Below, piece by piece: positions 2,131 to 64,000 of a stretch of 64,000 bases of DNA; the stretch's first letter is position 1, and each line of letters starts with the position of its first letter. The stretch is taken from the NCBI GenBank assembly GCA_003971905.1, contig RSEE01000005.1, positions 558,001 through 622,000 of the forward strand, written 5' to 3'. The stretch is from Moniliella sp. 'wahieum'. Lineage: Eukaryota. Below the pieces are notes generated by a model, which made no database searches, was not told the origin of the DNA, and was given only the letters and a program-made list of their open reading frames with translations. The translations under genes were made by a program, and so were the position numbers.

Positions 2131-2290
2131 GGAACGGTGGCTAAGGTGGCGAAGGGGACCGGTGGCTAAGGTGGCGATGGTGGGCCGGGGGAACGGTGGC
2201 TAAGGTGGCGACGGGGGAACGGTGGCTAAGGTGGCGACGGGGGAACGGTGGCTAAGGTGGCGAAGGGGGAACGGTGGCTACGGTGGCGAC
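2131..2290. repeat. Minisatellite, about six copies of a ~26-bp unit GGGGGAACGGTGGCTAAGGTGGCGAC
   Basis: GAAC/GACC unit anchors at 2132, 2157, 2191, 2217, 2243 and 2269; the last four are exactly 26 bp apart. Confidence 0.9.
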
Positions 2291-2847: not shown

Positions 2848-2951
2848 CATCATGCATCATGCATCATGCATCGCTTTTCTTCCGAGGGCTGGCTAGCGGT
2901 GACCGGTGACCGGTGACCTCACTAGTCACTGGTGACGCGTGACGCGTGACT
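2848..2951. repeat. TNA/4-bp-palindrome heptamer arrays just upstream of SEC72
   Basis: (CATCATG)x3 at 2848-2868, (GGTGACC)x3 at 2898-2918, TCA-CTAG-TCA-CTGG-TGA-CGCG-TGA-CGCG-TGA at 2919-2949. Confidence 0.9.
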
Positions 2952-6339: not shown

Positions 6340-6569
6340 GGCCGGTCGAGGTGGTGTGCTGCCCACAGCGCGCGCAGGAAGCCAAGGCTCTTGCTAGGGC
6401 CCCGAGGGAGCGAGCGTGCCCCCAAGGCGGAATGAACTCATTCCGCCCTGCGTCGCGTATTTGCTGACGGGGTAGGCTGATAGGCCTGCAAGCGGTGATT
6501 ATCGAGTACAGAACATGGTTAAACATTAACGTTAACCCCATCACCATCTGCCTCCATCCCAGCTATGCC

Positions 6570-14410: not shown

Positions 14411-14711
14411 TTATCGATTATCGATTCTCGAGTTACTAGTTACTAGTTACTAGTTATCGATTATCAATTGTCCATGAGCTTTGTTTACGTTTTGGGGTAG
14501 GATGGTGGCAGGGCCGAGCCCAGGAACGGGGGCAGTGTCCGCTAGCGGCTACCGCCGTCGGCCCTGCCAGGCCCAGTCCGCTGCCCTTGCAGCCGCTGGC
14601 TTGTCCGGCAGGTGCGGGGTAGCGAGACAATGTCTGGGATACGCTCCGCCTGCGCGCTATGCATTATGGCGAAGGCGATGATCGATGATCGATGACGCGT
14701 GACGCGTGACG
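14411..14711. repeat. TNA/4-bp-palindrome heptamer arrays upstream of the carnitine acetyltransferase gene
   Basis: TTA-CTAG-TTA-CTAG-TTA-CTAG-TTA-TCGA-TTA at 14433-14463; TGA-TCGA-TGA-TCGA-TGA-CGCG-TGA-CGCG-TGA at 14679-14709. Confidence 0.9.
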
Positions 14712-31191: not shown

Positions 31192-31761
31192 GGCGACGGG
31201 GGCGGTGCAGACGCGGATGCACCGGTCGACGCCAATAAAAACGCAGAGCTAGCTAGCTGGTGGGGGAGCCCAAGGTGCCCGACTGCAACCAGCGGCTCCC
31301 AAAGCCAGCAGATACGCGGCGCGCGCCGCTGGGTCTCAGTCGGTGATCTCACCCGTGACTTGGGCTGGGGCCGACGCGGGTGGGGGGCGTACACAGGCGT
31401 GGTGCGGTCGTTTGGCTGGCCGGCTCCGTGCTGCGTGCAACTAACTAACTAGCTAGAGCAGGCCAGAGCGTGCTGCAGCGGGAAGCTTGCTTGCCCTCGG
31501 CAGCCGTGCAGGCCGTGCTTGCACCGGGACCTGGCCACTAGGCACTGCAGCCGCAGGGGCGCACCATGTCTCGCCTGCTCCGTCACAGGTGGGGTGCCTT
31601 GCGGCCGCTAAGCCGCATCGGGCGGGGAGGGGGCAGTCTGGGACAGTCTGGGACAGTCTGGGGCAGCACAGGGCAGCCAGCATGCAGCACAGCAGAGCAC
31701 CGCGCGCCCGATTCAGTTCCCGACGGGGCCGGGGTGTGATGCCTGCCGGTGCATGTGCCTG

Positions 31762-32980
31762 TGACATGTGATGCATGATGCATGCATGGGAACACCCGAT
31801 GGGGTCTCTCGGCGCTACTCTTCAAGCTTCACTAGCTTCACTCCCCAGCGTGCAGCACCCGGGGCCCCGAAAAAGGGTCCCGATCCCCTTCTCTTGGAGA
31901 TTGAGGCATCGCTCCGATCTGGTGGCCTACGACGATATAGGGAAGAACTGTGGCTAGGAGGGCCCAGGGCTAGTCACTCGATATGGTCACTTGTCACTTG
32001 CAGCTTCAAGCTTCAAGTGAAGCTTCATTGTTCGCCACCGACCAGCCGGTATACTGTGTAAGAAGTGGTCCGGCCAGTTTGCGTGTGATCTGAGACACGC
32101 GCGTGACATTATGGGAATGCAATATGCACCTCCGATAGCTGAGCTGAGCACCAGGCTGACCGCGTGACGTATCGGTTGTGGCCTTGGGGGTTTGACGATG
32201 TTGACGCGGATGCGTGGACGTGTTGGGCGTGGGCCGATGGGGCCTGGGGAGCCTGGGGGCTGGGCCGGTTGGGGGGCTTGCTGGGGGGGCGATGGCAGGG
32301 TTTGGGAGTGGTGATCGATGATCGATGATCTCGGTGATCGTTGGCCTCTGTTAATCCGATCGGCCGCCGGCAGGCAGAGACTGATCTCTTGGCATGCAGT
32401 GGTTGCCTGCGATGGCTACAGGTATTGGACGCGCACGAGGTGTACGCAGGCGGCCTAATATTACCGGTACCGGTTACCACGGGCTTTACCCATTTGCCGT
32501 GCATCGCGTTTCCTGCACCCCACACCTGCTGACACATCCGGTCACCTAAGGCCAACACGTTATACATAGGATAGACAGGAGGTTTAACGCATACTGTGTG
32601 TGCTGTGTGGCCATCGTTCACCGATTACCGATCATGATCATCTCATCGATCTCAGATCTCATCCATCATCGAGATCATCGGCATTCTGTGATCTGTGGGA
32701 CCTGATGAGTATGAGAAGGGCCGGTACACCCATGCTCCATGCGTGTGATGCATGTGATGCACACATCCGAAAAAACGATGCAAAAGTGATGAACGTTGTG
32801 AACCAGTATCTCAAGATCTCATCACCAGAATAAGCGGGCCAACCAGCGTCAAGCATCCCGGATACCATCACCCTGAGTACCTTGAGTATGCCGTCGAGTA
32901 ACTCAGACTTAGTACTCTCACTCGCTGAACTCAGAGCTCAACCTCAGGCCTCACCGCCTCACCCTCACCGGTGCACTGAG
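31762..32980. repeat. Intergenic cluster of TNA/4-bp-palindrome heptamer arrays
   Basis: TGA-CATG-TGA-TGCA-TGA-TGCA at 31762, TCA-AGCT-TCA at 31822 and 32006, TGA-TCGA-TGA-TCGA-TGA at 32312, TCA-GATC-TCA near 32652, TCA-GGCC-TCA near 32944. Confidence 0.8.
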
Positions 32981-33355
32981 CCTGAAAGCAAAACGCCGCC
33001 ATACCAAGTAAAAGAGGGTATGCTAAAGGGTGTGACGCACAATCGGGGGGGAAGGTATATATCAACAGCTAAAATGGAGGAGAGATAGATGTTAAAACGG
33101 TTGTGTGGGCGAGATATGGGTGGTAAGAACAAACAAGAAGAAAAAAAGGAAGAATTGGTGTGCGTAAGCAAAACAGACAAACCACGGAGAGAGAGAGAGA
33201 GAGCACGCTGGTTACATAAGCTTAAGGGGGGTGGCAGAGAGGGATGACATCCACAAAGAGTCCAGCAGAGGAGCACAAGATCAAACGCAAGAGGCATGCA
33301 GAGTATTGGATGGAAGTTGAGAGACAGAGGTGGACTCGAAGGGGGGGTTGCGGGG

Positions 33356-36300
33356 TTACATAGCGATGCAGGTGCTTGGAATGGATCTGCAGGGTGTGCG
33401 CAGGGGAGGTGGAAAGATGCAGAGCATCAAGATCGTTGTGGGCACGGCGAGAAAAGTGGAGGTGATTGCGTGGTGTGCTGCGCACTAAGCCGACGCGACG
33501 CTCGAGGGCGAGAGATATGTATTCCATGCCGTTTCCCGGTTCCCACCGGCCTAGAAAGGCAGCAGGACGGTGTCCCTGAGAGTGATGAATGAGTGTTGGT
33601 GTGTTGAAGGATGCCAAGTCCTCGAGCGCTTCACTGCGAGAGTGGTACGTGTACTAGCCGGCTTGCACAGACTGGGCCTCCGTTGCTGGATTCTAACAAG
33701 GACGAAGGCAAAATAATGGTGGGGGGCAGGTCCGTCAGAATGGCGACGGGTGGAGTCAAGGCGTACCCGAGAGCTATGTTGATTTGGTGAATGATATCGG
33801 GCCGGTGTTGAGTGAAGACGCTGAGTTGAAGAGCTGCGACCGCGAAGCCGATGATTTCTTCGTGCAGAAGGAGTAAAGTCACTACCCGACTCGACCCATG
33901 ATTCGGGATGGAGGCATCGAGTGGAGGCGCCGAAGTACTTAGCCGTTGCAAAGACACGAGGGGATGCAAGGCAGGGCGCCCGAGCAAGGCAACGCCGGTG
34001 GCACCTAGCCCACACTTGGAACGCATAGAAGCGAGTCCGACATGGGCATAATCGCCTCAAAGCACACGCTGCACTCCAAGGATTGGCTAAAGACGGCACG
34101 GATGAAGTTGTGCTGTTGCACAGCAGGTTCCGTAGTTGATACCTGGGAGGGTTACGAAGACGAGTGTCGCTCGCTTTAAGCTGAAGATTGTCAGGGAGGT
34201 AAGAGAAGCTTGGCCCCTGCCAGGCTCTGACATGGATGGGTGCCGGGTGAGGGGTGTAGTGGCCACAGGTGAAGTAGGGGGTCCAAATGTCACTTGAGAC
34301 AAACGGCGAGCTTCGGATGAGATGCGATGCAGGGCCGGTAATGAGTTTTGGGCCACCCTTGGGTCACTGGTCCATACTTGGTCAACCAAGGGTGCGTACA
34401 TAGATCGCTGGCAATGGGACGGTCTGTAGGTAACTTGGAAAAACAAGACATGAGAAACTTGGTTAGGTCCTCGGATATATCTGAGGGCAGGGGAGGATGA
34501 GAATCGGTTACGATCTTATACAGAGCCTGCATAGAGTTGAGTTTTGCGTAGGGAGGATGCCCTGTCAACATTTCGATCACCAGACACCCCAGAGACCAAA
34601 TGTCACTCGCTTTTGAAGCCCCTTGTAGCGAAACAATTTCGGGTGCCATCCAGTACGTGGTGCCATCACTTCATGAGCATGGGAAGGCAAATTCACCGAC
34701 CAACGAGAGACGCCAAAGTCGGTTAGCTTAATATTTCCCGACTTGGTGGTCAAAATGTTGGCTGCTTTCAGGTCGCAATGGATCACACCCGCTTCATGAA
34801 GGTAGCGTAGACCATCAAGAATCTTCAGTGTGTACGTGGCCACGAGCGGCTCTTGGAAATGTCCGAAGGACCGTAGCATCTTCAGAAGCGAACCATTTTC
34901 AACATACTCTGTCACAATGCACAGATGGTGCTCTATCTTGACTGCGCCATAGTACCGCACTACGCTCGGGTGACTCAAACGCTTGAGCATGTCAACTTCT
35001 TGAGAAAGCGAGCGAGCCTCCTCCTGGTCCTTTCCCTTAAAGGGGATTACCTTGACCGCCAGTGTCTGGCCTGTACGCATCTCAAGTGCGACGTAGACCA
35101 CACCGTATTGCCCCCGCCCAATGGGTTTCCGGCCCAGGGTCTCGGCAAGGTCAATCAACCACGCGGTTCACAAACAAATTTCACGATCAGTCCATCTCAG
35201 TTTCTTCAAGAAAGAAAAGAGGAGGGGGACGTACCAGTGACAACGAAGAACCGTTCGCCTGCTGAGGGTCGAGATTTAGGGGGTTATGGACGAATGATCC
35301 CAACGAGCTGGAATCCAAGTCGGAAACAGCCGAAGACTTGGTTGTGCCCGATGAGACATGATGCGGGCGAGGAGAAGGAATGCTGGCCGTAGTATCAGAA
35401 TTGCGCCGGAGCTGATGAGGGGCAAGTTCGTCCAGAGTCCGGGGAAGAAATGGGTAGCAGAAGCACCCAGATGTCCGGATTCCACATCTCCCGTTGTACT
35501 AGTACTGTCAGATACTGCCCTTGGACATTGACCCTTCCTTCTTCTTAGGGGACGAGAGACGCTTAAAGCGCAGATTGCCCTGCCTTCCCGGATTGAGAGG
35601 GGGAGACGAGGAGAACGCAGTGCCAGATAGGTGAGAAGTGGAAGTTCCAGTCCTTTTGAGAGGATGTGAAACCTCGTTTAAACTCCCCTTGCTCCATTAT
35701 TCTTCCCGTTCCGTACTCCTTTCTGGTCCGATGTCATGGGCAACAAATACGATGGGTGAGGGAACGGAACCGACGATGTATCTGAGGGAAAACAACGGAG
35801 ATGCGCGACAGAGGTTGCCATCGATGGCGATCCAGTCATCGATGGCTCCACCGGAATTGCTTCCTGGGCAGATGGACTAGAAGTTGGCTCCTCCATTGAA
35901 TGGGCCTGAGGAGGGTGTTTCCCAAAGCAGGATCCTGTGGCAGCTTGATAGTTGATAGAACTGTGGGGTGAATCGGGTTCTTCTTTGAGACTTGTCAAGA
36001 CCATTTCTGTTTTGAGTGTCTCGCGACGCTCATAGGTCGTACCAGTAGAAAAGGGGGTAGCAGCTGGTCGAAGAGGTAGCAAACTGGGGGCCAATCCCAT
36101 CTGAGTCACCTCAGTGCTGGAAGTGGAACGGTGGACTTGACGATTAATGGCCCTGCTAGACCTGTTTCCCTGGATTCCCATGGGCAAACCATCGGCAGAG
36201 CCCGGTAGCCTTGATGGCTCGCTGGCACGGATCAATTCGGACACGGTTGGTTCCCTGTCCGATGTGGGGAGACCAGTACTACTGCTTGGACCTGCTACTG

Positions 36301-37265: not shown

Positions 37266-39887
37266 CTCAAATGTAATGCACCAACCAGGAGGGGAGCAGG
37301 GGTACAATGTACGAAGCGGTTGGAAACGGGGTTTGCGTTAACGTTAATGAGATGGGCACACCGCGATACCGGGTTAGGTGATGGGGAGGGACAGAAGTAC
37401 GCCACACAGCCCACGGCGAGAGCGGGGGCGGCGGCTGTGATGTCGAAGGAAGAGAACGATGATGAGCTGACCGTCAGATGGTTTTGCAGCAGCGCCCAAT
37501 GGGGGGGGGGGGGGGTCGATGGAGGTGGGGATGATAATAGTGCGATTGCAGGGGACACAGGGAATGACAAAAAAGGTTTCGAGTGGCGGCTGAGTGGAAT
37601 GTGCGGCGCTGACGTACTTGCGGGGAGGGGGCTGTTATAATATAGCGCGAGGGTCGGTACTTAGTGTATATATATGTAATTGCCTCCTGATGTGGGTACT
37701 GGGCCACTGCGCCAGTCACCGCCCACAGCAAACTAGGAACCATATAATAAACGCCGTTACGCTCAGCCCCCCAAACTGCTCCGCGCATCGAGTATCCTCT
37801 TACTCCTCATCTGCCCTCCTCCATCCGGCCCGGGACGATTCCCTCAGGCCTGAGAGGATCAGCTGCGCTCAGGCTGAGCTCGAGCATCGTCTTCGCTTCG
37901 CCCGCTCGTTGCGCAACAACATTGCGAGCAATCCAGCCCATAAAACTCCTTTCCGAGACCTTCTCTCACATCCAGGAGCCCAAGGTCATACATATAGCAA
38001 TCCGTGTTTTACGGCATGCAAAAAATGATTGAACATGTAATCCGCACATCATACTTCAAGCTTTAACTCACCTTCAAACTACTTCTCTCTTCACGAGCTT
38101 CGCATCACGTATTAACGTCTAACCGTGCGCATGATGCATGATGCACAATATGATGTACACATGGTGTACACGAGAGGCACATCATGATCTGCATGATCCA
38201 TGCATGACGCGTGACGCGTGACGCTCATTTAAAAACATTGCAAATGCATTCCCTTCTTTTGGACGCCGGCCGCGCATTGCCGCTCATATATTAGAGAACT
38301 AAGGATGATCGATGACCGGTGACCTATGAATATGACCGTTTGCAGCCTCTTTTGTGCTGAGGAATACCGACGGCGACTTTTCTCTTAACGCTGGCGCACA
38401 GCCGTCAGATATATATACCGGCACAAAGTGGTTGCAATCGAAAATGTGGCACACAATAACTGTTGGTCTTTGAAATTTGACACTACAGATGTGAGAAGAG
38501 AGAGTTTGACAGCTGTGAGAGGGGAAGAGCAGCTTTTCTTCTTGTTTTGTTAGCTTATTATGACCAAAAGGTCCCTTAGCTAGAGTTCGACCAGTGGGAG
38601 CACTACCACGGTCCCCATTAGAGATAAAAAAAACGTACCGCAAGAGAGGGTGGTTATAGACACAAGTCCTCTGATGTAAGCAGTTTGTGGGGCGAAGGAG
38701 ACGGGAGAAAAGCAAACAAGGGGAGGTGCAAAACCTGATGCGGGTGGAACGAATCAGTCCAAACGAGAGCAATATGTCACATTCACAACAGATCATCGAT
38801 CAACTGGGGAGAGGACGGGGAACGTGGAACCTGCCCTCTCAGATCTCACACTCCGCATCTTCGGCCCTTTTCGCCGGTCACCAGTCACCGCCACTAGAAG
38901 CTCGCTGGTTTTGTCTCACTTCTGTATTTTCCTCGTCTCATATCCGGTGGTGACTGGTTTTTTATATCGCTGTGTAGGTGTCGTTGGTTGGCTTAGACCA
39001 CAGCCCCTACATTCACTGGGATTCAATTTGCCTCGAGGGGCCATGAGGCCCAGGACTCGTCTCAAGATCAAGACACAGAAGAGTGGGACCACAGCAGGAG
39101 ACGAGGTCACCAAATCGCGTGTATACTCCAATAATAGTATAATTTACCTGGGCAATCTCTCTTCTCCTTTTCATTGGATCGATTTTGAGATTGTTTGTAG
39201 GGTTAATCGTGTTAAAAGGGACCTAAAGCCCGACCAGACGAGGTAACTATAAGGAGGAAATGAGGGAACGGACAATCCTTTGAGGAGGAAAGCCACACAA
39301 GCTTAGCCGCTGACAAAAGGGCGCAGGGAAGAGACTGAAGGAGTCTGGGGTCATAAGACGAAATGGCGAAGGAAGAGAGCCAAGAACGCGAGCGTCGGTC
39401 TCGTTTTTTGTTTTCCAAAACCTCCTGTCCAACCGTAAACTCCACGTGGGGGCAGCCCTATATAACCCCAATGACACTATATAGGCCACTGTCAGGGAGC
39501 TTCGGCCCGAAAATGAGAGAAACGATGGGATTTACACATGGATATAGAAACCGGGGAGTTAAAGAGCGGATATATACCCAATGGAGTAGAAAGAATCTAG
39601 GATAGAAAGAAGGAAGGAGAGGAGAGGACAGAGACTGGGGTGTTTTTGCTAATAATAACATCCATCTACACCACGCACAATTAAGAACCTGCACATCAAA
39701 AAGAGAGAGAATGGGAAGCTTCAATAGACTATACATACTATAAATACCAACGGAATGTAGGCAAAAGGGGAATGAGAAATGGATAAGGCATTAAGAATAT
39801 ACTGAAGGGAAAGTAACACCAAGAGAAAAGCAAGCAAAGAACGGTAACATGATGGCGATGGTAGGCCAACAGTAGAATGATACGAAA

Positions 39888-43293: not shown

Positions 43294-44019
43294 CTGGAAG
43301 AAGGTGATCAGAAAACAGATGAACGTCAGTACAGCACCTAAGAGGGCCCTTGGGGGTTGGGACGGTAGGGGTAGGAAGCAGGCGACACACCTGTGGAGCG
43401 GCGATGAGATGTTGGGTGGGTTAAACGCTCCGGAGTATTTTAGAGCGCTAGGACAACTTAAGGGAGGGTGCGGGGGGGGATGATACAAAGATAGAAGGAA
43501 GAAGGAATGGAAAACAGGGGATGGTGGAGTACGGGTGGTAGAACGGGTGGAGAAATATGGGTCGGAGGGGGGGAGAGGGCGAGGGGGCGAGGGCGAGCTG
43601 CTGGGGGGGCGACTGGCGGGCGAATGCTGGGGTCTTTAAGCCGATGTATATGGAGGGCTGCTCGCGTATCAAAATGAGTGACGACGGGCACTGTGTGGGC
43701 CGGAACGCTTTCCATCTGTGGGCGCAGCCGGTACGGACTGACAGCGTGCTTACAGATCTCAGGAGCGGCGGCATCTGTATGTATCGGCCTGTTGCCGTCG
43801 TATACTAGTCAAATCGCAGACGTTGCGACGAGCGAAGCCGTTCGCAGAGGTCGAACGGGGAGAGCAGTGCCAATGCATGTCACCTGTATAATAGAAGCGT
43901 GAAGCCAAGCCTCAAGAGGACTACAAGTGTTGCATGTCCGTAATTCACAGTCCTCAAGCTGGAGCCTTAGAGGCCTCACATGCTCGCATGCCATATGCCA
44001 CGGACCCTCGGATCTCGGC

Positions 44020-45640
44020 CTCACTAACGTTTAACGTTTAACGTACTTCACTTGGTCTTAGGTCTGAGATCAGACTGATCTATCTCTAAGATCTAAGAGA
44101 CCTTCAAGCTTCAAGCTTCGGGCCTCCGGGATAATCGATAATCGATAAAACGTTAAATTGTAGACTTGGTCCTACGTACTATCGGCACTCACATGGTTTA
44201 AATTGATTTAAAAGTGGCTTTTGTGGCGCAAGCGTCATCGATAATGGATAACTATCGATGATTTAATAATCGATCCAATAGATAATCCTCGGGACGCCTT
44301 TGCCAGTCACATGGTCACATGGTCACGATGTCACGCAGTTACGCGTTACGCGTTACGAGAGTGCGAGAGCCTTGAAGCTTGAAGCTTGAAGCTTGAAGCT
44401 TGAAGCTTGACTCAGGACTCAGCCAGGACTCAGGCTGAGTCCTGAGGCCGGCCTGAGAGCCTGTCAATGTCAAGCTTGAAGCTGAAGCTTGATTGAAGCT
44501 GAAGCTTGATAGCTTGGATAGCCTGAGGCCGCCTGTGACTTCACGCGTGATGTGTGGCGCTTGGTGTTGTCCCCCGCCCTGGGGAAGAGCGAAAGACTGA
44601 CGGAAAGACGAAGGCGGGCAGCAGCAGGCAGCTTGAAGCGTGAACCGTGAACTTGAGACGGAATAGAAGCGCATACTTGCCCGAGGAGGAAATTGCCAAG
44701 TGGTTAACGTTTAATGTTTAACACGTTTAACCACGCTTAACTAGATAAAATGTGACGCGTGACGCGTGAGATATGGAGGTGAGAGCGCCGCTGAAGACAG
44801 TCGTCGTAGGCATATTGGCTCACATGTGAGTTGTGAGTACTGAGTCCGTTGCATAGACCTCTTCGAGTGCTAGCCCAGGTCTCGTCACGCATCAGACTGA
44901 AGCTGTGAGCTCTTAGGGTTATTGACCACGCGCTCGGTGCCCGCTATACCAGGCTAGTATACCCCGCGCCTCTCTTTCCTTCCCTGATACACGTTAAAAG
45001 GAGACGTGGTTCCTCGCTGCGAAAGCCGAGGTGGATCTCGCAAAACAGCGAGGGGCTTACTCTGAAAGACTGGACGCGTGTGAGACGCGTGACGAGAGGG
45101 TGGCCCTCGGTGGCCGGTGGCGGGCGAGGTTCAATAAGATTGTGCACACTGAGCAGCGCTGTGAGGCCGCTGACGCCACAGAGCGGGGGCTATCAGTCCA
45201 TGTCAGCGCTCAGCCTGAGCGCTCAGCGCCAGCCGTTGAACGCTGAAACAGAACGTTGAATTTGGGTGAAATTTGAAATGAACCACGTGCGAGCTACTTA
45301 CGCGAGTGCGAGCAGCGAGGTTGAAGCCCGCGAGATGCGCGACGGACAAATATATACCCCCAACCCCTGACCATACGCTTTCGTAGTGTAACCGAAGTTG
45401 ATATGCACGAGGACTATGCAAAAGACGCCACACTCGGAACAACCCCCAGTCTCGCATTGTGGCATTCAAATTGTTATTGTGGGGAGTCACACATGTGTCA
45501 GAGCCACACTGGTCACTCACTGGCACTGCTTGAAGCCTGAAGCTCGACGGAAGCTCTTGAAGCTTGACACGTATGTGACATCCAGTATAGCTTAACTATA
45601 GTGACTATTATATTATAGTGACTAGTGACTGCTCTCACGC
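44020..45640. repeat. Densest cluster of TNA/4-bp-palindrome heptamer arrays
   Basis: ACGT-TTA-ACGT-TTA-ACGT at 44027, TAA-GATC-TAA at 44087, TCA-AGCT-TCA at 44104, TAA-TCGA-TAA near 44132, TTA-CGCG-TTA-CGCG-TTA at 44339, (CTTGAAG)x5 at 44371-44405, TGA-CGCG-TGA-CGCG-TGA at 44753, TCA-CATG-TGA-GTTG-TGA-GTAC-TGA at 44820, TCA-GCGC-TCA at 45203. Confidence 0.9.
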
Positions 45641-47250
45641 GGTCAACGCGAGGGTTGTGGCTATCAAACTGAGTCCTGATCGCACTGATCTCTTGGCAGC
45701 TTCACATCAGGATCACATGTCCCTACCGCACATCAGCGCATGTTATAGACCCCAAGATATGATACGGCCGCGGTTACCATCAATTATTAGTCCGTTTAGT
45801 ACCGGCTGTGTACCAGAGTTTCCCTGCTTTACCACACGTGTGATGAAAAAAAAAATTATATAGGTGCAAGAGAGCAAAGAGGTGAGCGATTCTTATCTCG
45901 ACAACTCTCGCCGTTGGGCCGTTTAGAACATATGGACGTCGGTCACAAACATTATCCCCACTTCCAGCCATACCCGGTGTGGGCAAAAACATTACACCGC
46001 AGCGGGCCCTAAGGGATCAGTACCACATTAATTGTCCACACACAGCAATCCAGAGGGTATAGCATCGCCCATTCCAGTCCAGTTCCACGCGAGACCATTG
46101 CGACCCCCTCTCCCGCCGCATCATCATCTTCCCTAGGATTTTTCCTCGCTGCGCGCAATCTAACTCTCATCCTGCTAATGTGGCACCACACTGGTGGTGA
46201 TGGCCCCGGTAATAGCCCAATAAGCCCGGAGCCTTCCGGTCCATTCTTTCCGATATTCCTTTTTCCTGGAGGACAGGAATATCTCTAGCTCTGTAGCTCA
46301 TTGCGTAATATGCAATGCAATACACCATCATCAACTGTTTGATGCTCTCTGGTTTCTACGGCGAAGCATTGCCTCTCCGCCTCCTTGCCCATGATATCCT
46401 TTGCTTCCTCCGCGGTGGTGTGTGCAAAAGCACTTGCTGTGCGCCCTCTCCCGTGTTTCTCGTCATCGCGTCATTCAATCCAATCTTGTCGAGCATCCCC
46501 GATGAGGCGCATCCCATTCCGTATGTCGCCTTGTTGACAACCCAGTCGATAGACCACAGGTTGACATGCTCACCTGGGTTCTGTCGGCTTCCAGCATGCG
46601 CTCCTATATATATAATGGAGGGCCACGATGGTGCAAACGGTCGTCCTACTCTTCTCCATTGTTTCTACTACATCCCTTCTCTTGGCATTCTATAACCCTT
46701 TCTGTCATCAGGATCGTTCTCTTGGTTGCCAAATATGAGATACTTGGATTCGCAAAAGACTTACTGAAAAGATGGACAACCTCAGCCCATCTATGACCCT
46801 ATGATTGTCACCTCTCCTTACTTGCCACGGAGTACCCTGGCGAATGGGTTCAATGCGGTTCTAGCTGGCGCTCTATATGGTTCTCAAAGGTTTGCTTATG
46901 CTGCTGGTGGCGTTTCCCCAAGTACATATTCCCGAAGATAAGAGAGAAAGCTAGTGACGGTTGATATATGATACGTTGATAGATGACAAGAGTCGTGTCT
47001 AAACCCGTGGGACATTGTGGGGCAATGGGATCATTATTCGCAGACGTTAAAGGGAAAGAATTACACCTTCGTCCTACCTGGGGCGTATCCCACGACCATC
47101 AAGAATGAAAAGCGGGGAAGGGTGACGTGCTGAAATAAGAAGAGAGTACGGCAATTGATCAAGGAGTGTCGGAGCACGCCCTGGACGAAAATACTGGCAA
47201 TAGTAATGGATCTTGTGGGTGAACATAGTAGGGAAAACGCCCCATTCGTT

Positions 47251-48751
<1,501 letters not shown>

Positions 48752-52487: not shown

Positions 52488-53538
52488 AGGAGGACATCGC
52501 AGTATCCATCAATGCCTGCACCTCCCGTAGCTAAATGTACATGTCCAGATCAAATTTGGTGGAAACTATCTGCAGATGAAAGGGCCTCGGCTCGTATCCG
52601 ACCTTGGAGCGTTATTGACCTGAGCGCAAGGATTGAGGTGTGTGTGGGTAGGATGATGATAGATACACTATTAGAATGTCCTACTCGACTGGCGTCGCAA
52701 TATGCGCGCGAACCATGTTCGCGTAACTCGATTTGAAGACGGATGGTGGGGTCTACCGAAAGTCTTAACCAACTACCGACGCCCTCAACCTTCTAATTCC
52801 ATCGGAGAGTGTGTAAGCTGAAGCAAACAGATGCGCCAGCCTGGTGGCCAAGAGAGTTCCCATGTCCCTGCCTAACTTTTGATGAAGGTTTTGTATAAGG
52901 ATTTAAGTTACACTGTGTGCTGCATGCATCATGCACATTCATGTGCACCATGCATGTGTAATGGGGCGATGATGGTCAACACGAATCGATATCCCCCCAA
53001 ATCACTGGTATACGTGCGTGTTGCTGTGTATGACTTCCATCCAATTCTAAAGGGATATCGTCTCAGGCCTCAGTGTGCCTAGAATGGTGACCATCTCTTG
53101 CCTTTTACAGCCACAGAACAAGTTCATGTTGAAAACGATCATCGCGACCAATCCAAAAGAAACGTTTTTGACCAGTACCTGTGGCTGTGCAGCGGGCGAG
53201 AGTGCACCACAAGTCCATTACGACCCATGCTTCTCTCGCTCTTCCCTTTTGTTCCCTGCAGATACCTCTTGTTTACTCACTTAAACGATCTTGTGACATG
53301 TGATGCCCCCCTCCCCGTAGTACCTCTCTGGCTTAGACCTTATAGTCTCTCTCGCTTAATAGATCGGACTATGATTGCAATGGCTATCGTTCGTGTCATT
53401 TCATTCACCGGATTCACCTGCATCACTCCATCACAACGGAGGTGCACAAAGGGATACCGATTTTTCACTTCTTTGACATATATTTGCTATGGATGGTCTC
53501 AAAAGTTCTCACACGCCAACGCTAAAAAAGCTCTATTA

Positions 53539-55640
53539 TAAGATCTAAGATCTGAAGCTTGAAGCGTGAACAAGGCTGAACGTTTTGATGTAAACTGTCA
53601 CAGGCCTAGCTAGCGATGCTGGCGATGGTCGATGGAGATGGCATTCAAGAGCTAAGGAGAGCTAGAGCTATGGGCCTTGATAGGCTCCTGGCCTGGAGGC
53701 CAGTGGAAACCCGTGGAAGGGTCGGAACTCACTGCCCCGGTGCACTGTGTGGATCGGGCCACGTGTCACTGAAGGCCGATGGGCTCTAGACCACTGGTGG
53801 TCAACATAAACTACGAGAGCTTCAAGCTTCGAGCTTCGACGTTCACAGTTAAACGTTAACCCTTTTCATCCTGCTATAGATCTTATATCACCCTGATAAT
53901 AATAATAACTGTTAAAAACGAGGACAAAGGCCTACGGAGAGAAGAAGAGAGAGGAGGTGATGGATCTATCCAAGAGAGGAGCCCATTAGGGGCAGAACAT
54001 AGGGGAGAGTCGGATAGAACAGCGCGATGCGTGATGCGTGATCAGCTGCATGCATGATGGCGCTGACAATAACCATAACCGATGTAACCGATGTCTTCAA
54101 GCTTCAAGTTTCAAGCTTCAAGTTGAAGCTTCATCGTCATCCTCCGTCAAAACGTCGCATCCACGGGGTTACATTAACTATAGTAGGCCCTGACCCTGAG
54201 GTCCTACTGGACATCTATAAGTCTTGTAAACTTGAGAGCCTGAGAGAAAACACTTTTAGTTTCAAACTAGCCAATCCTCAAAAACCTCAAGTCTCTCGGT
54301 CGCGGTACAGCTGGTACAGAGCACATGCTGTTGGCTCATCGAGTGTTGTTTGTGAGATATCTGTGAAAGCTGCAACGTAATATAAATCACACACTGTGAT
54401 GCATTCTTTGAATGTGCAATAAGAGCATTGTTTGATGGATTTGCGACTGGACTGGAAGTTATTGAGTACTTAGTACTTCGAGTTTCTCGGATCTCAGATC
54501 TACATGTCACATGATTATGTCACACCTGTCACACCAGATCTTTGCCACACACCACACACACCACACACACACACACATCAGAGACACAACACCATGTCAT
54601 CAATTCATAAAGCTGTTTCTTCTGTTGTTGGGTGGGGTGGGATTACCTCGATGACCCTTGACTAGCTTGAAGCTTGAAGCTTTGAAGGCTTGAGAGGTCC
54701 TGAGGCCTCAGCCTGAGGGTTATAAGGGAGCCCTGAGTCCTGAAGATGCCTTTTGAAGCTTTTGACCTTAATAGAGACTTGCTCTTCCCTCTTCTTGCAC
54801 ATGCTAATGTCTACATGAATGAAGCTGTGAAGCCGCAACCATTATGCCTTTGTATAATGTTATGCCCAGTGACTAGTGATGAAGACAGTATGATAAAAGC
54901 CTGCCAAAGCGTACATTAATTTGAAGCTGGTGTGGTATATGTTTGAGGGGTTTCTGTAAAAGAGGGCTCTCTCGCTTTTGTTATTGTCCCGGTTGTTGGG
55001 TAAAATGTTGAGCATTCTTGAAGTTAACGAGATGAACGTGTGAACAGGTTTGTTGGGGTGATGCCCCAATCACGCCATCCTTGTGCGGGACAGGCACCAC
55101 CCCCCTTATCCACCCAGAAGCTCCCTCTGCTCTCCCCCGGTACTCTCGGCTATATAAGCCCTACCTTTCTCATAACCTCCTGTTCCTCTCCTCAGCACCA
55201 CATCCGCCATTCTCCTCCTTCAGCAGAGTTGAACCGTGGAGTATACGAGTTCCGAGTACTAATAAACTTAATATTAGGCGTTACGCGTTATTGGGCTGTG
55301 TAGGCCTTATACGCGCTTGACGTGTTGTATAATTGACCCTTTATAGAGTCGGGCGGGCCGGGTGCGGGAAAGCCAGTAGGTCGGATATAAATCTGGCTAC
55401 GTACCACCTATAGGCGTATGTAGTACTGAGTACTCAGAACTCAGAGCTCAGATCCAGAAAGTACACAGATCTCGGAGAGATCTCAGAACATTAGGCTCAG
55501 GCGCTCAGGTCGATCAGATCTAGATCCAGACCACTGGTACAGAGTACTGAGTGCACTGAGTCATCCTCACAGTAACTGAGTACTTATTATTACTAGGTAC
55601 CGACTGCTCGGGCCAGGACCGAGCTCCTGAGTCACAGCGT
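53539..55640. repeat. Intergenic cluster of TNA/4-bp-palindrome heptamer arrays plus a CA microsatellite
   Basis: TAA-GATC-TAA-GATC-TGA-AGCT-TGA-AGCG-TGA at 53539-53569; TCA-AGCT-TCA-AGTT-TCA-AGCT-TCA at 54097-54120; TGA-GTAC-TCA-GAAC-TCA-GAGC-TCA-GATC at 55427-55454; (CA)n-like tract near 54546-54577. Confidence 0.85.
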
Positions 55641-59102: not shown

Positions 59103-61873
59103 TGCCTATACCATTTCCCCCAAATCCCTTTCCGCGATTCTCCAGATTCTATTCTCGCCCACGACGTGTTTTTTTGCTCTGTACGCCTTGCCAAGACACG
59201 GATCTTCAGTTTTAGCTCACTTGCCCCGACCGATCCCCTCCTCACTACGCCTCTGCCTCCGTCTCTTTCATGACTAGCCCAAACTCTATTTGGCACACGC
59301 TCCTTTATGTGCTCGTCTCTCTCGTCCACGTTTCACACGTTCTGATTTCTTCGTGCCACCTCTTCCTTTACGAACATATTTTTGCTACGTGCGAAATGAT
59401 AGGCATCAACACCCACTGTTTTTTGGGATGTCTGATTATAACGCCCACGGGCCACGCACAACCATTAGTATGTCTACGTCGTTGCTTGGTCTCCTGTTTT
59501 CCCAATCGATATATACACTTGAATTTAATTTGAACCCAGCGATGAGAGCTGCACGGGCGACCGGTCGGTCAGGCACACTTGCGCCGGTGAATCTGAGGAC
59601 GGGCATCATGTCAAAATGGAAGAGAAGGTGGGAGCGGAGGTGGCCCTAGCTCCCGATGTCATCTCTATCACTGCGCTCACATGAACTGATGTGAATTGAA
59701 ACATTGTTGGCAGAGGCGCAGCGCCGAAATATACCTGAAGGGCCAGGCGCCGGCTGCCGGTTATGGCTTCGCCTGTACACCACAACACAAGACTCGAAGG
59801 TTATTCTGTTATATACCGCGTGACGGTGAGTGAAGCTTGAAGTGCATACCAGAAGGATGGTGGAGCCTGTGCAGCCCATTCGCGTCTACTGTCGTAGTCT
59901 TGACACAGTATTCCGACGACATTACCGCCGAGCACATCCGCTCCGAACTTCTGGAAAAGGTCATCAAAGAAGAGGACCTCTTGTTGAGGGTAGTGCTAGG
60001 GTCCCCCGGCACGGCCCTCAATATTCAATGGATCAGTGGCGCTCGCTTAGCCGGGGGGAAGAGTTCCGCTCGCAGGGCGCAACGCCCCACTGCTCGCTGC
60101 ATCTCCCTCCCTCTCTCCTTTCTCTGATCTGAGAGAGCACACCGGCGGCGGTGCTTTACTGCTTTCAGCCTCAGGCCCCTCAGGAGGCTCATCAGCCTCG
60201 GCCTATCAATCTCGGGCCGCTTTGTGATTGGAGAGGGTCACATGATGCACATGATGCATGATGCATGATGCATGAGATGATGATGATGTTGATGACCACA
60301 AGCTGGCGGTGGTTTTCAAGTAAGAATCTTAATCTTTAATTACCATATGGCAGGACCCATCAAAAAGTGGCAACCCTACTGCTCCCCGACCTGCACGTGA
60401 CGGGGCTGGCTGGCTGCGCCAAGTATCGGGCATATGACCGACGCGTCCCTCCACCCACTTAAAATGCCCCCTACCCGTGTACTCACCGCCGGTGTCCCCA
60501 TTGCGGCACCAACGACCATACTGCTTCAAGGTGCCCCTCAATCCACGCCCACGGTTGTGCCCCCACTGCCGTCGACCTGGCCACAAGGCTGCCGCGGAGC
60601 GGTGGAGCAAGGAGGAGATGTGGAAAGCAATTGGGGTCTTTGCGACAAAAATAAGGTGGGGGGGGAGAAGGACAAGAAGAGGGGGGGAGGACAAGAGAGA
60701 GGGGGGGACAAAGGGAATTGGTGGAAGGATGGAGCAAGGATGATCGATGGTCCAGAGGTGGCGGGATCGATCTCCACGTAACGTGAATTACGACGACCCT
60801 GTCGCAAGCGGGCCCTGCCAGGGGGCTCGCTCAGGTTGGTGGGGCAGTCCCTTAGGTGAAAGACGACTCACGGTAGTTTCGGGCTTGGGCTACTTGGTGG
60901 TTCCGAGCGAGGTGGAGAAGCCTTTGGGCGTGAAGCCGAGGCGGGCTGCTGGCGCGTGGCAAGGGTGCGTATACGCCGGCGGGAGGGTAGCATCGTGTGT
61001 GAAGCCTCCGGGGCTGAGAGAGGTAGATGCAGTGGAGCGGACAGACACTGCCAGGCTGCGGCATGGCAGTGGCTGTGAAAGGAACCCACGCGACATGTTG
61101 TGGTACGGGGAACCGACGCGGCTGATGGAAGGCTCGCGCGACTGGGCAGATGGAAAGCTGGAGGATGAGGTTGGATGATGAAGATGATGCAGCTAAGTGG
61201 AGACGAGAGGTGCCTGTATTACTGAATCAATTGGCTGGAAACGTTCAGGAGTTTGGCAGGAAAGGCGGGAAGGGACGAGAAGGGAAGGTGAGATAAAGGA
61301 TCTCTACCAATCGAGGATGCTGACTGTTGGTGGCCCCTTTTTGGTAACCCACCGCACTGGGATAGATGTTGACAGAGCGAAACAGACGAACCTGCTATAG
61401 AGTGCGACTTGGGAGCACTCGCGATCCTATGGATCAGCTGCAATGCAGCCTTCAGACAAGGCGTGAAGGCAAGTTCAAGCACATCTGAATTGAAGGGAAG
61501 GAGACAGGAGAGAGAGAAGGGAGATGAAGCGAGCAGGGCGCGCGCGCCCTGCGAGCGGAACTCTTCCGCCCGGTTAAGTGAGCGTCACCGATTTACCGAG
61601 GACCGTGCAAGGGAACCCCAGCACTACCCTCCAACAGAAGCAAGCGAAGACTGCGAAGGCACTAAGAATGTCATCCGATAGCAATTCCTCGTTTCCAATG
61701 TGTACCGACGGTCGGGAGCTGGTTCATTTCCTTGTTCCGCAGTTAAGCCCCTGGCGGCGACTGGCTGCTTGATGTTTCCTCTGTAGGCGTTTCCTCTGTA
61801 GGCGTTGCTGGCTGGCTTAGACCACCACCAGTAGTGCAATTGCCTCACCCTTGAGGACCTGATATCACAGCAC

Positions 61874-62100
61874 AGGCCTCAGGCCTCAGGCCTCAGGACT
61901 CCAGGTCTCATCGATCATCACAGCGGAAAAAAACAGCGGAGCTTCTCGATAGGCTGAGGCCTCGGCCTGAGGCTCAGGCTTGAGGTGAGGCTTGAAGTTC
62001 AAGCTTGAGGAGGGACTGAAGCTTGAAGAAGCATGGCCAAGCGCACGAGCCATCCTATCGTCATCATGCATCATGCGCGTGCGTCACGCGTCATGCATAT
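61874..62100. repeat. TNA/4-bp-palindrome heptamer arrays upstream of thioredoxin
   Basis: (CCTCAGG)x3 at 61877-61897, TCA-AGCT-TGA near 61999, TCA-TGCA-TCA at 62064, TCA-CGCG-TCA-TGCA at 62084. Confidence 0.85.
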
Positions 62101-62232
62101 CCATTTGCTTGTGCACGGTGCAATCTAGCTCCAAAATAGAACCCCGCGATTACATCATCGCTTAATTAGTCCCAACTCGCTCGCCTTCTTCGCCGTAAGC
62201 AAGCAACGACACTGCTTCTTGTTGCCACCATC

Positions 62233-62990
62233 ATGTTCTCTCGTTCTACCCTCGCTGCTATTCGCCCCTTGCTGCCTCCGCTGGAGTGTGTTGGGTACCT
62301 CCGCCCTGCGTGCCTGCATCCCTGCAGCTCGCCCTGCCTTTTCGGCTTCCTTCCACGGTTCAGCCCAGGCCGGGCTGCAAAGCACGCGCAAGACTTGTGC
62401 GGACGACGACGGACGAAACGGCTGCTACGCCTGAATCCCCTCCTCGCGTGGAGCCGAAGAACGTGCATGAGCACCCCCGATCTGGATTGAGATGTGAACT
62501 ACGAGACGCTGGGCCAACTGTGTTGACCCCTGTTGAGGGCGGTGAGGGAGCCAAGTTGGAAACCAGCATCGCCCTCATCGACTTTTACGCCGACTGGTGC
62601 GGGCCCTGCAAGGCGCTGTCGCCCTTGCTGGAGAAGCTTGCCAAGGAAGAGGGATTGGACACGACGTCATCTCGCTCGATGTGGACAAAAACCCAGAGAT
62701 TGCCCAGGCTTTCCAAATTACGGCGCTGCCGACGGGTATGGCCTGTACCCAGAACAAGCCGGTGCGACGCTGTACGTGCCCTCCCGCCTACCACATCTCT
62801 TCCAGGTTTGAATCGGACTTGCTAACCTGTTGGATCTCGCATTCGTCCAAGGCCTCTGCCCGAAGAAGCTTTGCGCCAATTTGTTCAGGACCTTCCTACT
62901 CTAGCTGCTGAGGACGCTAAGGCGGAAGAGGCCCTGACCGCTGCTGAGGCCGACGAAGCTGCCTCCGAGTCCGGGCCGACAAAGCAGTAA
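62233..62990 (+). CDS. Thioredoxin, probably mitochondrial; frameshifted, intron about 62772-62851
   Basis: Presequence-like MFSRSTLAAIRPLL; ALIDFYADWCGPCKALSPLLEK, LDVDKNPEIAQAFQITALPT; stop TAA at 62988-62990. Confidence 0.88.
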
Positions 62991-64000
62991 TGTTTCCATC
63001 TCTCAGTGCACCAATTAATCTCCCTTTTTGATCCATGCATGTACAGTCTCTGAAAGTGGGCATATACGTAGCTCGGCATAACCCGATCCAAGTAGCCCTT
63101 CTCCCCAATTTTTGCGTCCCCCCCGTGCCTCAGCCGGATGTTCATCCTGCTGGCAATCTGTCTCTGGGGGTCATATTATGCTTCTGAGTTGTGGCCCCAC
63201 AAGAGGCAGGGAAAGGTATGTGAACTATTCCACTCCATTGCATAATCAACGTTCAACGCAGTCAACAAAGCCAGGGCTGGGCTCAGTCAAACCTTGTTGC
63301 CGAAGCACACTGAATGGCGATGAAGCCGAAGCTTGCTCTGTGGGGCTACCTCAAATTTGTTGGTGCCTCATCGCCAAACCCATTGTGCGCGTTGCAATGT
63401 CTAAGATAGAGCTGAAAGAGAAGCACAACGATTCCACTGATGTGACGCCACACTGGAGTAGTGTCACCGGCAGCTCCAGTCCGGTCGACCTCTGGCGGTG
63501 CATTCCTTTCGGGAAGAGTATTCCTTACTGGAGGCCACAGGAATACTCTATGGCCTGTGTAATATACAATAGCTCATGTACAATAGACACCAACTACCAT
63601 ATCTGTCAGTCTGATTCTCGAGTTCCTAACAAAATTGAGAAGGTCTAGGTGTGGAGCTACAGACTGTTCTGAAGTTCATCCACAGCGTGTGGCGTATCTG
63701 AGGAGATAATAGGCATTTAACGATGTCCAACATCCTGCTTTATTCCCCTGACCTTCTATATATACTTTCCTATATATACTTTTCCTTGTCGACGCTTGCG
63801 CGTGTGGACCATAGGTCAAACTAATTGGCCTCGACTTTGCATCACCTAATACGGGGGCGGTCTGTGGATTGCCCAGCTCTGTGTGGGCCAACAGATGCAA
63901 AAAGAGGATCGACCTAGTATCGCTCTCTATTACGAGGAGGGGAAAAATGGTCGTACATGTGCTGGCTGTGGCTGCTGCGTTGCTGATGTTCCTGTCGATC

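Follow-up and report, generated by a model that had tools for sequence, protein, structure and literature searches.

The DNA analysed here, which we call the window, is a single stretch of 64 kb from one assembly, and all our counts refer to it. The host is an Exobasidiomycete-like fungus; its eukaryotic nature is evident from the uL3, eIF3L and Leo1 genes in the window and from the presence of introns. Over the eIF3L exon, close relatives reach 93% (P0124) and 87% (P0125) identity. Rfam and tRNA scans of the window gave no matches. The intergenic DNA contains islands of short tandem arrays of period 7, in which T-N-A triplets (TNA) alternate with 4-bp palindromes of the form xyy'x' (Table 1). 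Perfect arrays account for 5-8% of the bases in six array-rich islands, with 6.9% in island E. Island B is flanked by two divergent genes, a minus-strand carnitine acyltransferase gene and a plus-strand gene with a Ulp1 domain.

Table 1. Array islands, array pairs with a common TNA and single elements in the window
Feature	Position	Strand	Remark
Island A, directly upstream of a plus-strand TPR gene; TGCA, CCGG, CTAG and CGCG units	2200..2950		
Period-6 variant, TA + palindrome + TA + half palindrome	6527..6536	+	sequence count
CTAG-unit and TCGA-unit arrays, one TTA in common	14431..14465		
Island B, 7 arrays	14440..16582		3.27 per kb
TCGA-unit then CGCG-unit array, one TGA in common	14676..14711		overlap 3 nt, same frame
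Island C, 7 arrays	31253..33362		3.32 per kb
CATG-unit and TGCA-unit arrays, one TGA in common	31760..31784		
Island D, 5' side of a minus-strand protein-kinase gene, 7 arrays	37661..39315		4.23 per kb
TCGA-unit and CCGG-unit 12-mers, one TGA in common	38304..38324		
GH16 domain	42383-43420	minus	
Island E, 5' side of the minus-strand GH16-domain gene, 15 arrays	43636..47259		4.14 per kb
Densest part of island E, many different TNA + palindrome heptamer arrays	44020..45640		
Longest array, y'x' + (TGA-AGCT)x5 + TGA	44371..44410		40 nt = 5 + 7x5
Island F, upstream of a plus-strand BAH-domain gene, 16 arrays	52499..55596		5.16 per kb
Island G, array-bearing, also holds an inverted duplication	59831..63258		
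Canonical 12-mer, W = TCAAT	60018..60029	+	paralog alignment

The window contains 183 perfect arrays of period 7 that are 12 nt or longer, compared with 48.7±5.1 in shuffled sequences. In 76 of them the unit is a TNA plus a 4-bp palindrome, a type whose chance share is 2.7% and of which about one array is expected. The rule-bearing intergenic arrays that a preliminary description of this DNA had picked out are therefore a very strong signal. Among the perfect arrays of at least two periods, 48 have period 7, 36 have period 6 and 4 have period 8, and period 7 is found in 43 of the 118 TRF rows. The 48 period-7 arrays (at least 14 nt) are head-to-tail tandem copies, as in slippage microsatellites. 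For 33 of these the unit can be read as a 6-bp palindrome with one additional nucleotide, and all 33 have the form A-xyy'x'-T + N, which is again a TNA plus a 4-bp palindrome.

The preliminary description had proposed that palindromic spacers be compared with non-palindromic ones, with other spacings and with shuffled controls. For this comparison we used 30 dinucleotide shuffles and counted in the 15.8 kb that lie outside long stop-free frames. TNA-N4-TNA with a palindromic N4 occurs 71 times and in shuffles 3.4±1.9 times, whereas with a non-palindromic N4 it occurs 64 times, against 53.8±6.5. Palindromic spacers of other lengths give 13 observed against 14.2 shuffled for N2, 32 against 15.0 for N3, 8 against 3.5 for N5 and 2 against 0.8 for N6. 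The enrichment of TNA-N4-TNA is restricted to palindromic N4 and to a spacing of 4.

The grammar of TNAs and interchangeable palindromes first described is real, but its minimal element is one-sided and sharper than had been claimed. This basic element is 12 nt long: W, which is T-N-A-x-y, appears twice, and its last two bases in reverse complement stand between the copies; the palindrome is thus templated by one flank. The canonical 12-mer is found at 58 loci in the window, against 0.4 in shuffles, and no rule-free microsatellite behaviour is seen, as the unit sequence and the array boundary both obey the rule. Counted in registers, there are 115 for T-N-A compared with 0.3 in shuffles, and with other outer bases 0 for A-N-T, 2 for G-N-C and 3 for C-N-G. 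Analogues with one inverted base occur in 9 registers for T-N-A (5.9 in shuffles) and those with three or four inverted bases in fewer than 3 registers each, meaning that 5- and 9-bp analogues of the 7-bp rule were not found in this window count.

The array boundaries follow the same one-sided form. Array length modulo 7 is 5 in 41 of the 76 arrays and 6 in 15 more, the latter being the canonical boundary with one extra chance base. When the 70 arrays with two same-N TNAs are considered, 47 are extended by 2 nt or more on one side only, 15 on both sides and 8 on neither; with random flanks, at least 2 matching bases would be expected on a given side in 1/16 of cases. The exact forms (2,0) and (0,2) together number 31, compared with 2 for (1,1) and 3 for (0,0). 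A symmetric 10-nt core with chance flanks is rejected by these counts. We can also reject a perfect 10-bp palindrome as the basic unit. N is the same in both TNAs in 89 of the 115 ten-mers and complementary in 14 pairs, so the ten-mers are direct repeats and not 10-bp palindromes. All four N and both orientations of the element occur, and within the window orientation shows no visible polarity with respect to replication strand or transcription (21 vs 24, intermixed).

Which palindrome is used seems to matter little. The 115 ten-mers use 15 of the 16 possible 4-bp palindromes, with frequencies that roughly match the background of TNAxy, and therefore there is no sequence choice in the palindrome. 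The twelve palindromes containing G or C had each been reported at a position, and all are present there; at 55427 the two N differ (TGA..TCA). Palindromes made only of A and T had been thought absent. This was wrong, as AATT is found at 15272, 38471 and 45267, TATA at 46962 and ATAT at 60018, although such spacers are mildly depleted (5 of 45, with 9.7 expected).

Arrays lengthen in 7-nt steps and their copy numbers drop off roughly geometrically: among the 70 arrays, 56 have one spacer, 11 have two, 2 have three and 1 has five. The longest array retains the canonical one-sided boundary. Neighbouring arrays are frequently in register, with a common TNA frame in 9 of 18 close neighbours (2.6 expected), and in four pairs the arrays overlap by exactly one TNA, at which the left array ends and the right one begins (Table 1). 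Ordinary microsatellite slippage, in which palindromic heptamers expand better via slipped strands that fold into hairpins, could account for the geometric fall in copy number. It would also be in line with the arrays of the commonest unit being widespread in metagenome contigs, and with predicted array folds that have T-N-A triloops with 5-bp stems. Slippage requires a prior repeat, yet most arrays have a single spacer and canonical loci far exceed chance. It further leaves unexplained the one-sided 5+7k boundary, the restriction to T..A, the missing 5- and 9-bp analogues and the TNAs common to different units. The predicted folds do not help this explanation much either. The longest array is predicted to fold with T-N-A triloops at -9.9 kcal/mol (z = -4.3), and predicted folding is clearly better than that of shuffles in 2 of 8 arrays; in the other 6, z lies between -1.3 and +0.6, no better than shuffles, and hairpin stability alone was therefore rejected as the driver. 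We agree with the earlier dismissal of slippage and consider it an unlikely origin of these arrays.

A templated origin brings these observations together. We suggest that the arrays are probably products of a recurrent, templated insertion of 7 bp at intergenic T-N-A sites. In one event, ...T-N-A-x-y... would become ...T-N-A-x-y-y'-x'-T-N-A-x-y..., with the 5 nt TNAxy copied directly, while the 2 nt y'x' would derive from the opposite strand of the neighbouring flank. The outcome would be a 4-bp palindrome set by the flank and a second TNA in 7-bp register. A repeated event at either TNA would add another 7 nt to the array or, if on the outer side, place a new palindrome in the same frame, and it is this re-striking of newly created TNAs that would explain the grammar. 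Growth from 5 nt to 12 nt is the most parsimonious interpretation. The heptamer y'x'TNAxy that would be inserted forms a minimal hairpin in its own right, with a 2-bp stem over a T-N-A loop. The 12-mer with W = TCAAT has an inverted paralogous counterpart near 61.59 kb, which falls short by exactly 7 alignment columns at this spot, and the pair has also diverged at the site itself.

The preliminary description had inferred a dedicated generating process from one symmetry rule shared by unrelated units, and this inference holds given the excess of canonical loci and the range of palindromes used. Of the origins it offered, fold-back or template-switch synthesis comes closest: the palindrome is indeed half flank and half inverted copy, but N is copied directly. 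The two inversion centres that it saw as the cause of period 7 can be dismissed, since N is directly copied and the element is asymmetric.

For the molecular steps of the 7-bp insertion we have a preference, which is tentative and carries considerable doubt. The event might start with a nick 5' of the T, after which TNAxy would be re-copied by strand-displacement synthesis. The polymerase would then move onto the displaced strand for two bases, and synthesis would rejoin or return at T/A via a hairpin-like intermediate. The product would be identical if a staggered 5-nt break were combined with the addition of 2 nt on hairpin opening (P-type). The trigger might be a nicking activity directed at TNA. 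What counts against the templated insertion as a whole is that the T..A restriction goes beyond base-pairing alone, with 2 registers for G..C and 0 for A..T. Polymerase switching normally yields varied products, and an inverted part fixed at two bases is unusual for it. The weakness of the predicted hairpins and the concentration of arrays on the 5' sides of genes also count against it. It is conceivable, though we regard it as less than probable, that a dedicated activity of this lineage, for example a domesticated TNA-targeting nuclease or nickase together with strand-switching repair, writes flank-templated 7-bp hairpin units in accessible DNA on the promoter side, with a frequency similar to that of point substitution. 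A rough steady-state calculation from array density alone would put the +7 events per TNA at 0.3-1 times the substitution rate per site. If true, new intergenic sequence would be made continually, the size and composition of promoters would be set by it, and the arrays would be the readable signature of a previously undescribed germ-line mutational process.

The arrays are largely confined to non-coding DNA. Confident coding sequence contains 2 arrays in 14,456 bp (0.14 per kb) compared with 1.49 per kb elsewhere in the window, where confident coding means segments scoring at least 14 in a weak codon model with a null maximum of 13.8, a crude mask, and where arrays contain stop codons by construction. 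The avoidance of coding regions that had been noticed by eye is borne out by this count. A mask of long stop-free frames is biased because of the stop codons that arrays carry, and an over-fitted hexamer coding model, which covered 19% of the window, was set aside. In six long intergenic regions on the 5' side of genes there are 55 arrays in 13,380 nt (4.1 per kb), and in three convergent spacers 2 in 2,928 nt (0.68 per kb). This 5'-side concentration could reflect function or chromatin-limited access.

One functional reading is a selected cis-acting code, in which a protein recognises TNA (mostly TGA) half-sites repeated every 7 bp, or in which selection maintains the arrays as a structural part of the promoter. 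The 5'-side concentration would be expected under such a code, as would a TNA register that runs on across different units. The spacer is dictated by its flank, however, and nearly all possible palindromes are used, so no defined consensus exists. A binding site would need neither a flank-templated palindrome nor a one-sided half unit, and the element occurs in both orientations and with all four N without polarity. In addition, 47 loci are one-mismatch relics that lack one of nine constraints (8.6 by chance), nearly as many as the 58 perfect loci, which suggests decay and not conservation. The protein code that the preliminary description had listed as a candidate fails to explain interchangeable, flank-templated palindromes, and we think it improbable. 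We think it most likely that the arrays are neutral by-products.

Could the arrays be the excision footprints of a cut-and-paste transposon that inserted and excised repeatedly at the same sites? Such an element might be of the TNA-targeting PIF/Harbinger type, or it might make a 5-bp target duplication with hairpin-derived palindromic bases. The form of the element, a duplicated target on both sides of flank-complementary bases, is that of hairpin-type footprints. TNA target duplications are moreover described for the PHIS superfamily, which is reported in fungi too and in which NuwaII uses C|TNA|G (PMC4482050). The T-N-A triplet is duplicated in our arrays as well. Still, PHIS elements duplicate 3 bp (TWA or C|TNA|G), and their excision is precise, in 109 of 110 events for mPing (PMC2836001), whereas extra bases are present in the arrays. 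The arrays have no C/G flank preference. A C|TNA|G target would need palindromes starting with G, which make up only 21 of the 115 ten-mers, and N is G or C, not W, in 70 of the 89 same-N pairs. No transposase, integrase or reverse-transcriptase domain was found in the 86 open reading frames of at least 150 codons in the window. A self-BLAST of the window gave 10 pairs only and no dispersed TIR family. Around 60 visible events in 64 kb without a resident copy would be implausible. The PIF/Harbinger footprints proposed earlier are thus unsupported as stated.

Off-centre opening of DNA ends that are capped by hairpins leaves palindromic (P) nucleotides and excision footprints (PMC5499845). The footprints of hAT, MULE, Transib and V(D)J-type reactions resemble the canonical element in having two flank-complementary bases between short duplicates. 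In contrast to those footprints, which are variable and draw on both flanks, here a single form is enriched, only one end contributes bases, the duplication is 5 nt, the site is T-N-A and events recur at the same place. The product is stereotyped, without plain 5-bp duplications or palindromic bases at the TNA end, and the window has no period-5 excess of comparable size. No hAT, MULE or Transib elements were found in the 64-kb window. Taking both transposon variants together, we see little likelihood that excision produced the arrays. Slippage by one unit, footprints of PIF/Harbinger elements and a code for protein binding all account poorly for the arrays.

Among known repair pathways, SD-MMEJ by polymerase theta offers a close parallel to the templated insertion. 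In SD-MMEJ, short insertions are copied from within a few bases of the lesion, partly in direct and partly in inverted orientation, just as 5 nt direct and 2 nt inverted from the adjoining 5 nt are seen here. A repeat of a single base can suffice for priming, and in the study concerned TA/AT inverted primer repeats were among the commonest. The difference is that our arrays show one stereotyped product with a net gain of 7, no deletion and a thousands-fold specificity for T-N-A, reiterated into arrays in a fungal germ line, whereas SD-MMEJ junctions are heterogeneous, usually with deletions, and follow an experimentally made break.

Heptanucleotide repeats are also known from bacteria. The GGGNATC type repeats of Xanthomonas and Nostoc share the period of 7, the presence at many loci and the over-representation in non-coding DNA, and their origin is likewise left unexplained (PMC4692102). 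In each genome they comprise a single G-rich unit or a small number of them, frequently as four units or as inverted arrays that face each other (PMC4692102), in contrast to the dozens of self-complementary, flank-templated units that obey one construction rule in our eukaryote. Searches of the mainly open-access literature turned up no account of such palindromic heptamer arrays from fungi.

A metagenome scan with the commonest unit of the window returned at least 120 stretches from many unrelated organisms; none of the stretches listed matches the window itself. As a pipeline control, the canonical boundary is seen in 12 of 115 metagenome arrays of this unit among the matches listed. The same contigs, again among the matches listed, hold 14 extra canonical loci in 673 kb where about 4 are expected, and a weak version of the grammar is seen in a few of them (L038, L044, L060). 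In one near-identical pair of metagenome contigs (L010 and L017) the indels are unrelated to arrays. No sequencing error mode known to us produces 7-bp palindromic insertions that are templated by their flanks. If the arrays were an artefact of sequencing or assembly, it would have to strike at TNA alone and spare coding sequence, and a weaker version of the element is present in unrelated metagenome assemblies as well. We regard an artefact as very improbable.

With their single construction rule, the arrays point to a recurring, hitherto undescribed way in which 7 bases would be inserted at T-N-A sites. If this is true, a single event, a gain of 7 bp at T-N-A with five bases direct and two inverted, would make up a large share of intergenic turnover. 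It would be an unusually clean natural mutational signature and provide a direct handle on strand-switching or hairpin repair in vivo. The arrays would show the birth of new palindromic DNA and of new microsatellites, and the process might explain why the 5' intergenic regions are long although the genome is otherwise compact. Standard surveys of microsatellites usually stop at hexamers, and for this reason the pattern may have escaped notice in Ustilaginomycotina. As the rule is simple and can be counted in any genome, comparative genomics could find its phylogenetic spread and the gene responsible. A rare period-6 variant that lacks N is also present in the window, at 5 distinct non-simple loci (7 registers compared with 0.6 in shuffles; example in Table 1).

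Across the whole window Tandem Repeats Finder returned 118 rows, 43 of them with period 7 by our own count, and on reading the sequence the region around 44-45 kb (see the table) is dense in short heptamer repeats. When arrays are defined as maximal perfect runs of at least two periods, the window holds 74 at period 5, 36 at period 6, 48 at period 7, 4 at period 8 and 11 at period 9, so that period 7 departs from the four-fold drop expected with each additional base. With the cut-off set at 12 nt, period 7 accounts for 183 arrays, where 20 shuffles give 48.7±5.1. Among the 48 arrays that reach 14 nt, the unit of 33 combines a 6-bp palindrome with a single base, and all 33 of these units have the form A-xyy'x'-T plus any base N, that is, a TNA triplet followed by a 4-bp palindrome. 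The same form is found in 76 of the 183 arrays counted at the 12-nt cut-off and in 2.7% of random heptamers. These shares bear out the preliminary description, which had proposed TNA triplets spaced at period 7 by interchangeable 4-bp palindromes, and every palindrome that it cited was found in place. It had seen no arrays with A/T-only palindromes, but these are present, if slightly under-used (5/45, with 9.7 expected).

A comparison of spacers, made over the 15.8 kb not occupied by long stop-free frames, supports this rule. TNA-N4-TNA with a palindromic N4 is seen 71 times against 3.4±1.9 in 30 dinucleotide shuffles, whereas a non-palindromic N4 is seen 64 times against 53.8±6.5. With the same control, palindromic spacers of 2, 5 or 6 bases show little or no enrichment, and those of three are doubled (32 against 15.0). 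The two neighbouring N of a ten-mer are identical in 89 of 115 cases and complementary in only 14; the ten-mers are therefore direct repeats, and we rejected the 10-bp palindrome as their underlying nature. The 14 complementary cases, perfect palindromes of the form TSA-palindrome-TS'A, compare with about 4 by chance, and some of them sit where two oppositely oriented arrays abut.

The boundaries of the arrays are one-sided. Among the 76 arrays with a TNA plus palindrome unit, length modulo 7 is 5 in 41 and 6 in 15. An array either begins at T and stops midway through a palindrome, or begins with the second half of one and ends at A, which is the reverse complement of the first form. In the 70 arrays with at least two TNAs of the same N, an extension of at least 2 nt past the outer TNA is found on one side only in 47, on both in 15 and on neither in 8; the exact forms (2,0) and (0,2) together number 31, against 2 for (1,1), 3 for (0,0) and 3 for (2,2). 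A 10-nt core with random flanks would predict that about one in eight arrays reaches 12 nt, and nearly all do. From this we take the basic element to be a 12-mer: a five-base word W (TNAxy), the reverse complement of its last two bases, and W again. Each palindrome is thus half the flank itself and half an inverted copy of it. This element has 58 loci in the window against 0.4 in dinucleotide shuffles. Plain slippage fits poorly, as it cannot give rise to 58 single- or few-copy elements with such boundaries.

The geometry is also fixed in other respects. Counting canonical-form registers (all registers, both strands), T-N-A is found 115 times against 0.3 in shuffles, A-N-T never (0.3), G-N-C twice (0.5) and C-N-G three times (0.6), and forms in which one, three or four bases are inverted show no enrichment over shuffles in the window. 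The choice of xy mirrors the TNAxy background fairly well. A rare variant of period 6 lacks N (TA, 4-bp palindrome, TA, half palindrome); it has five loci, with 7 registers against 0.6 shuffled. Among the metagenome matches listed for the commonest unit, TGA+AGCT, only 12 of 115 arrays have the canonical boundary; the boundaries are thus not imposed by the pipeline. An assembly or sequencing artefact as the source of the arrays is unlikely.

Longer arrays retain the boundary and differ in length by whole sevens (19, 26, 40 nt); 56 arrays have one spacer, 11 have two, 2 have three and 1 has five. Array pairs at most 21 nt apart share a TNA frame in 9 of 18 cases (2.6 expected), and four pairs overlap by exactly one TNA, at which the left array ends and the right one begins. 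In keeping with this sharing, T is enriched at -7 (21/45) and A at -5 (23/45) upstream of oriented arrays. Shared TNAs would be expected if a single TNA can fire either way, each time using the two flank bases of that side. The two orientations are about equally frequent (21 and 24) and intermixed, with no orientation bias of N among them. Three successive TNAs close all three frames of the strand on which TGA or TAA reads (7 mod 3 = 1), but this is probably a coincidence, since no more than 14 of 70 arrays contain at least three TNAs.

The sequence itself shows that each event adds seven bases beside a TNA, five by direct copying and two by copying the other strand of the adjoining flank. We infer that a 5-nt site becomes a 12-nt element; this polarity is the more economical, because a 5-nt insertion needs a pre-existing TNA plus palindrome, a site rarer by a factor of 16. 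As a minimal hairpin the added heptamer y'x'TNAxy has T-N-A for its loop, and so does every fold predicted for longer arrays. One possible route would begin with a nick 5' of T, after which TNAxy would be re-copied by displacement synthesis. The polymerase might then jump to the displaced strand for two bases, and synthesis would rejoin the displaced 5' end or go back to the template at T/A. Such a route would yield the exact product observed, unchanged N included. The same product might arise from a 5-nt staggered break with both ends filled in, if hairpin opening added 2 nt to the end distal to the TNA. Both routes would cover the product form, but neither the use of T..A only nor the exactly two inverted bases. 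That the geometry is fixed speaks for a step imposed by a protein, and the fold energies, no better than shuffles in 6 of 8 arrays, argue against DNA thermodynamics alone. Taking array density as a steady state, we roughly estimate that the event rate per TNA differs from the substitution rate per site by no more than an order of magnitude.

The preliminary description was right to posit a dedicated process behind one symmetry rule, and fold-back or template-switch synthesis was the closest of its three candidates. Footprints of a TNA-targeting transposase have the right shape but are poorly supported, given a single product type and no C/G flanks. There is no such element in the window either: none of its 86 ORFs has a transposase domain, and self-comparison revealed no dispersed element family. 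Moreover, the only superfamily known for TNA targets excises precisely (PMC4482050, PMC2836001). The closest known processes and classes are SD-MMEJ templated insertions (PMC5728401), P-nucleotide footprints of hairpin-forming transposases and bacterial heptanucleotide repeats of unexplained origin (PMC4692102); none of the three is known to have the T-N-A rule, the 5+2 construction or the reiteration into mixed arrays.

Beside the 58 perfect elements, 47 loci meet eight of the nine element constraints, against 8.6 by chance, about the number to be expected if neutral elements decay by mutation. The first T is the constraint most often missing (12 loci) and G/C complements make up 5 of 10 N mismatches; these small numbers weakly hint at a variable return point from inverted to direct copying inside T-N-A. 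A code for a TNA-binding protein, the third candidate, is poorly supported: it would not need flank-templated palindromes, and conservation would be expected where we see relics. A possible before and after of an insertion lies in an inverted duplication, one arm of which carries a 12-mer where the other lacks exactly seven columns; substitutions have accumulated at the site as well, and it is suggestive only. The duplication itself resembles duplicated gene-flank sequence more than transposon ends.

The arrays form islands: 55 of them fall within six long intergenic regions that total 13,380 nt (4.1 per kb) and have 4.8% to 8.0% of their bases in perfect arrays, whereas three convergent 3'-3' spacers hold 2 in 2,928 nt. 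Judged by the strands of the flanking Pfam hits and the order of their domains (TPR; carnitine acyltransferase with an Ulp1-domain gene; kinase; GH16; BAH), all six take in the 5' side of at least one gene, which leaves some room for function or chromatin-limited access. As first described, arrays avoid coding sequence: 14,456 nt of confident coding sequence has 2 (0.14 per kb, against 1.49 elsewhere), on a mask that rests on a weak coding model. A second caveat is that arrays are bound to break reading frames, since any TNA reads as TGA or TAA on one of the two strands. No Rfam families or tRNA genes were found in the window.

By exon identity the host is a basidiomycete of the smut subphylum (uL3: 79% Tilletiaria, 77% Violaceomyces; eIF3L: 73% Microstroma glucosiphilum, 71% Tilletiaria, with two closer relatives at 93% and 87%). 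Its genes are split over frames and therefore contain introns. No description of such arrays in fungi was found in the literature searched, a search whose scope leaves out most subscription journals. TGA+AGCT arrays of three or more copies occur in at least 120 stretches of environmental metagenome contigs of many kinds. The 673 kb of flanks around the matches listed contain 14 further canonical loci (about 4 expected), and three of these contigs (L038 at 4290-15500, L044 and L060) display the grammar faintly, with other TNA plus palindrome 12-mers. The process may therefore exist elsewhere at a low level, while it is rampant in this lineage. The observation, confirmed and refined from one window, is best placed with templated insertion and microsatellite birth, and has a distinctive signature that can be counted.

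Positions of arrays and other repeats, in window coordinates
Feature	Position	Details
Dense heptamer repeats	43900-45800	
A/T-only palindrome spacers	15270, 38469, 45267, 46962, 60018	
10-bp palindromes (examples)	14343, 29238, 32018, 37844, 44470, 44541, 44820, 45216, 54124, 54701, 55427, 61999	
Array pairs sharing one TNA	14431/14454, 14676/14693, 31760/31769, 38304/38313	
Period-6 form without N	6527, 32462, 33217, 35497, 37346	
Inverted duplication	59982-60124 / 61501-61636	~145 nt, 80% identity, 1.4 kb between arms
12-mer in one arm of the duplication	60018-60029	
Paralogous segments, inverted	18853-19296 / 60800-61279	about 450 nt, about 70% identity
Paralogous segments, direct	19549-19649 / 51315-51418	104 nt, 82% identity
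G-rich minisatellite	2134-2291	26-bp units, about 4.7 copies, internal 9-bp periodicity; a short way upstream of where heptamer arrays lie in island A, an array-rich intergenic region
G or C homopolymers	37501-37515, 10066-10078, 56216-56228	13-15 nt
CA-rich simple repeat	54546-54592	in island F, another array-rich region; among the few non-heptamer microsatellites of the islands
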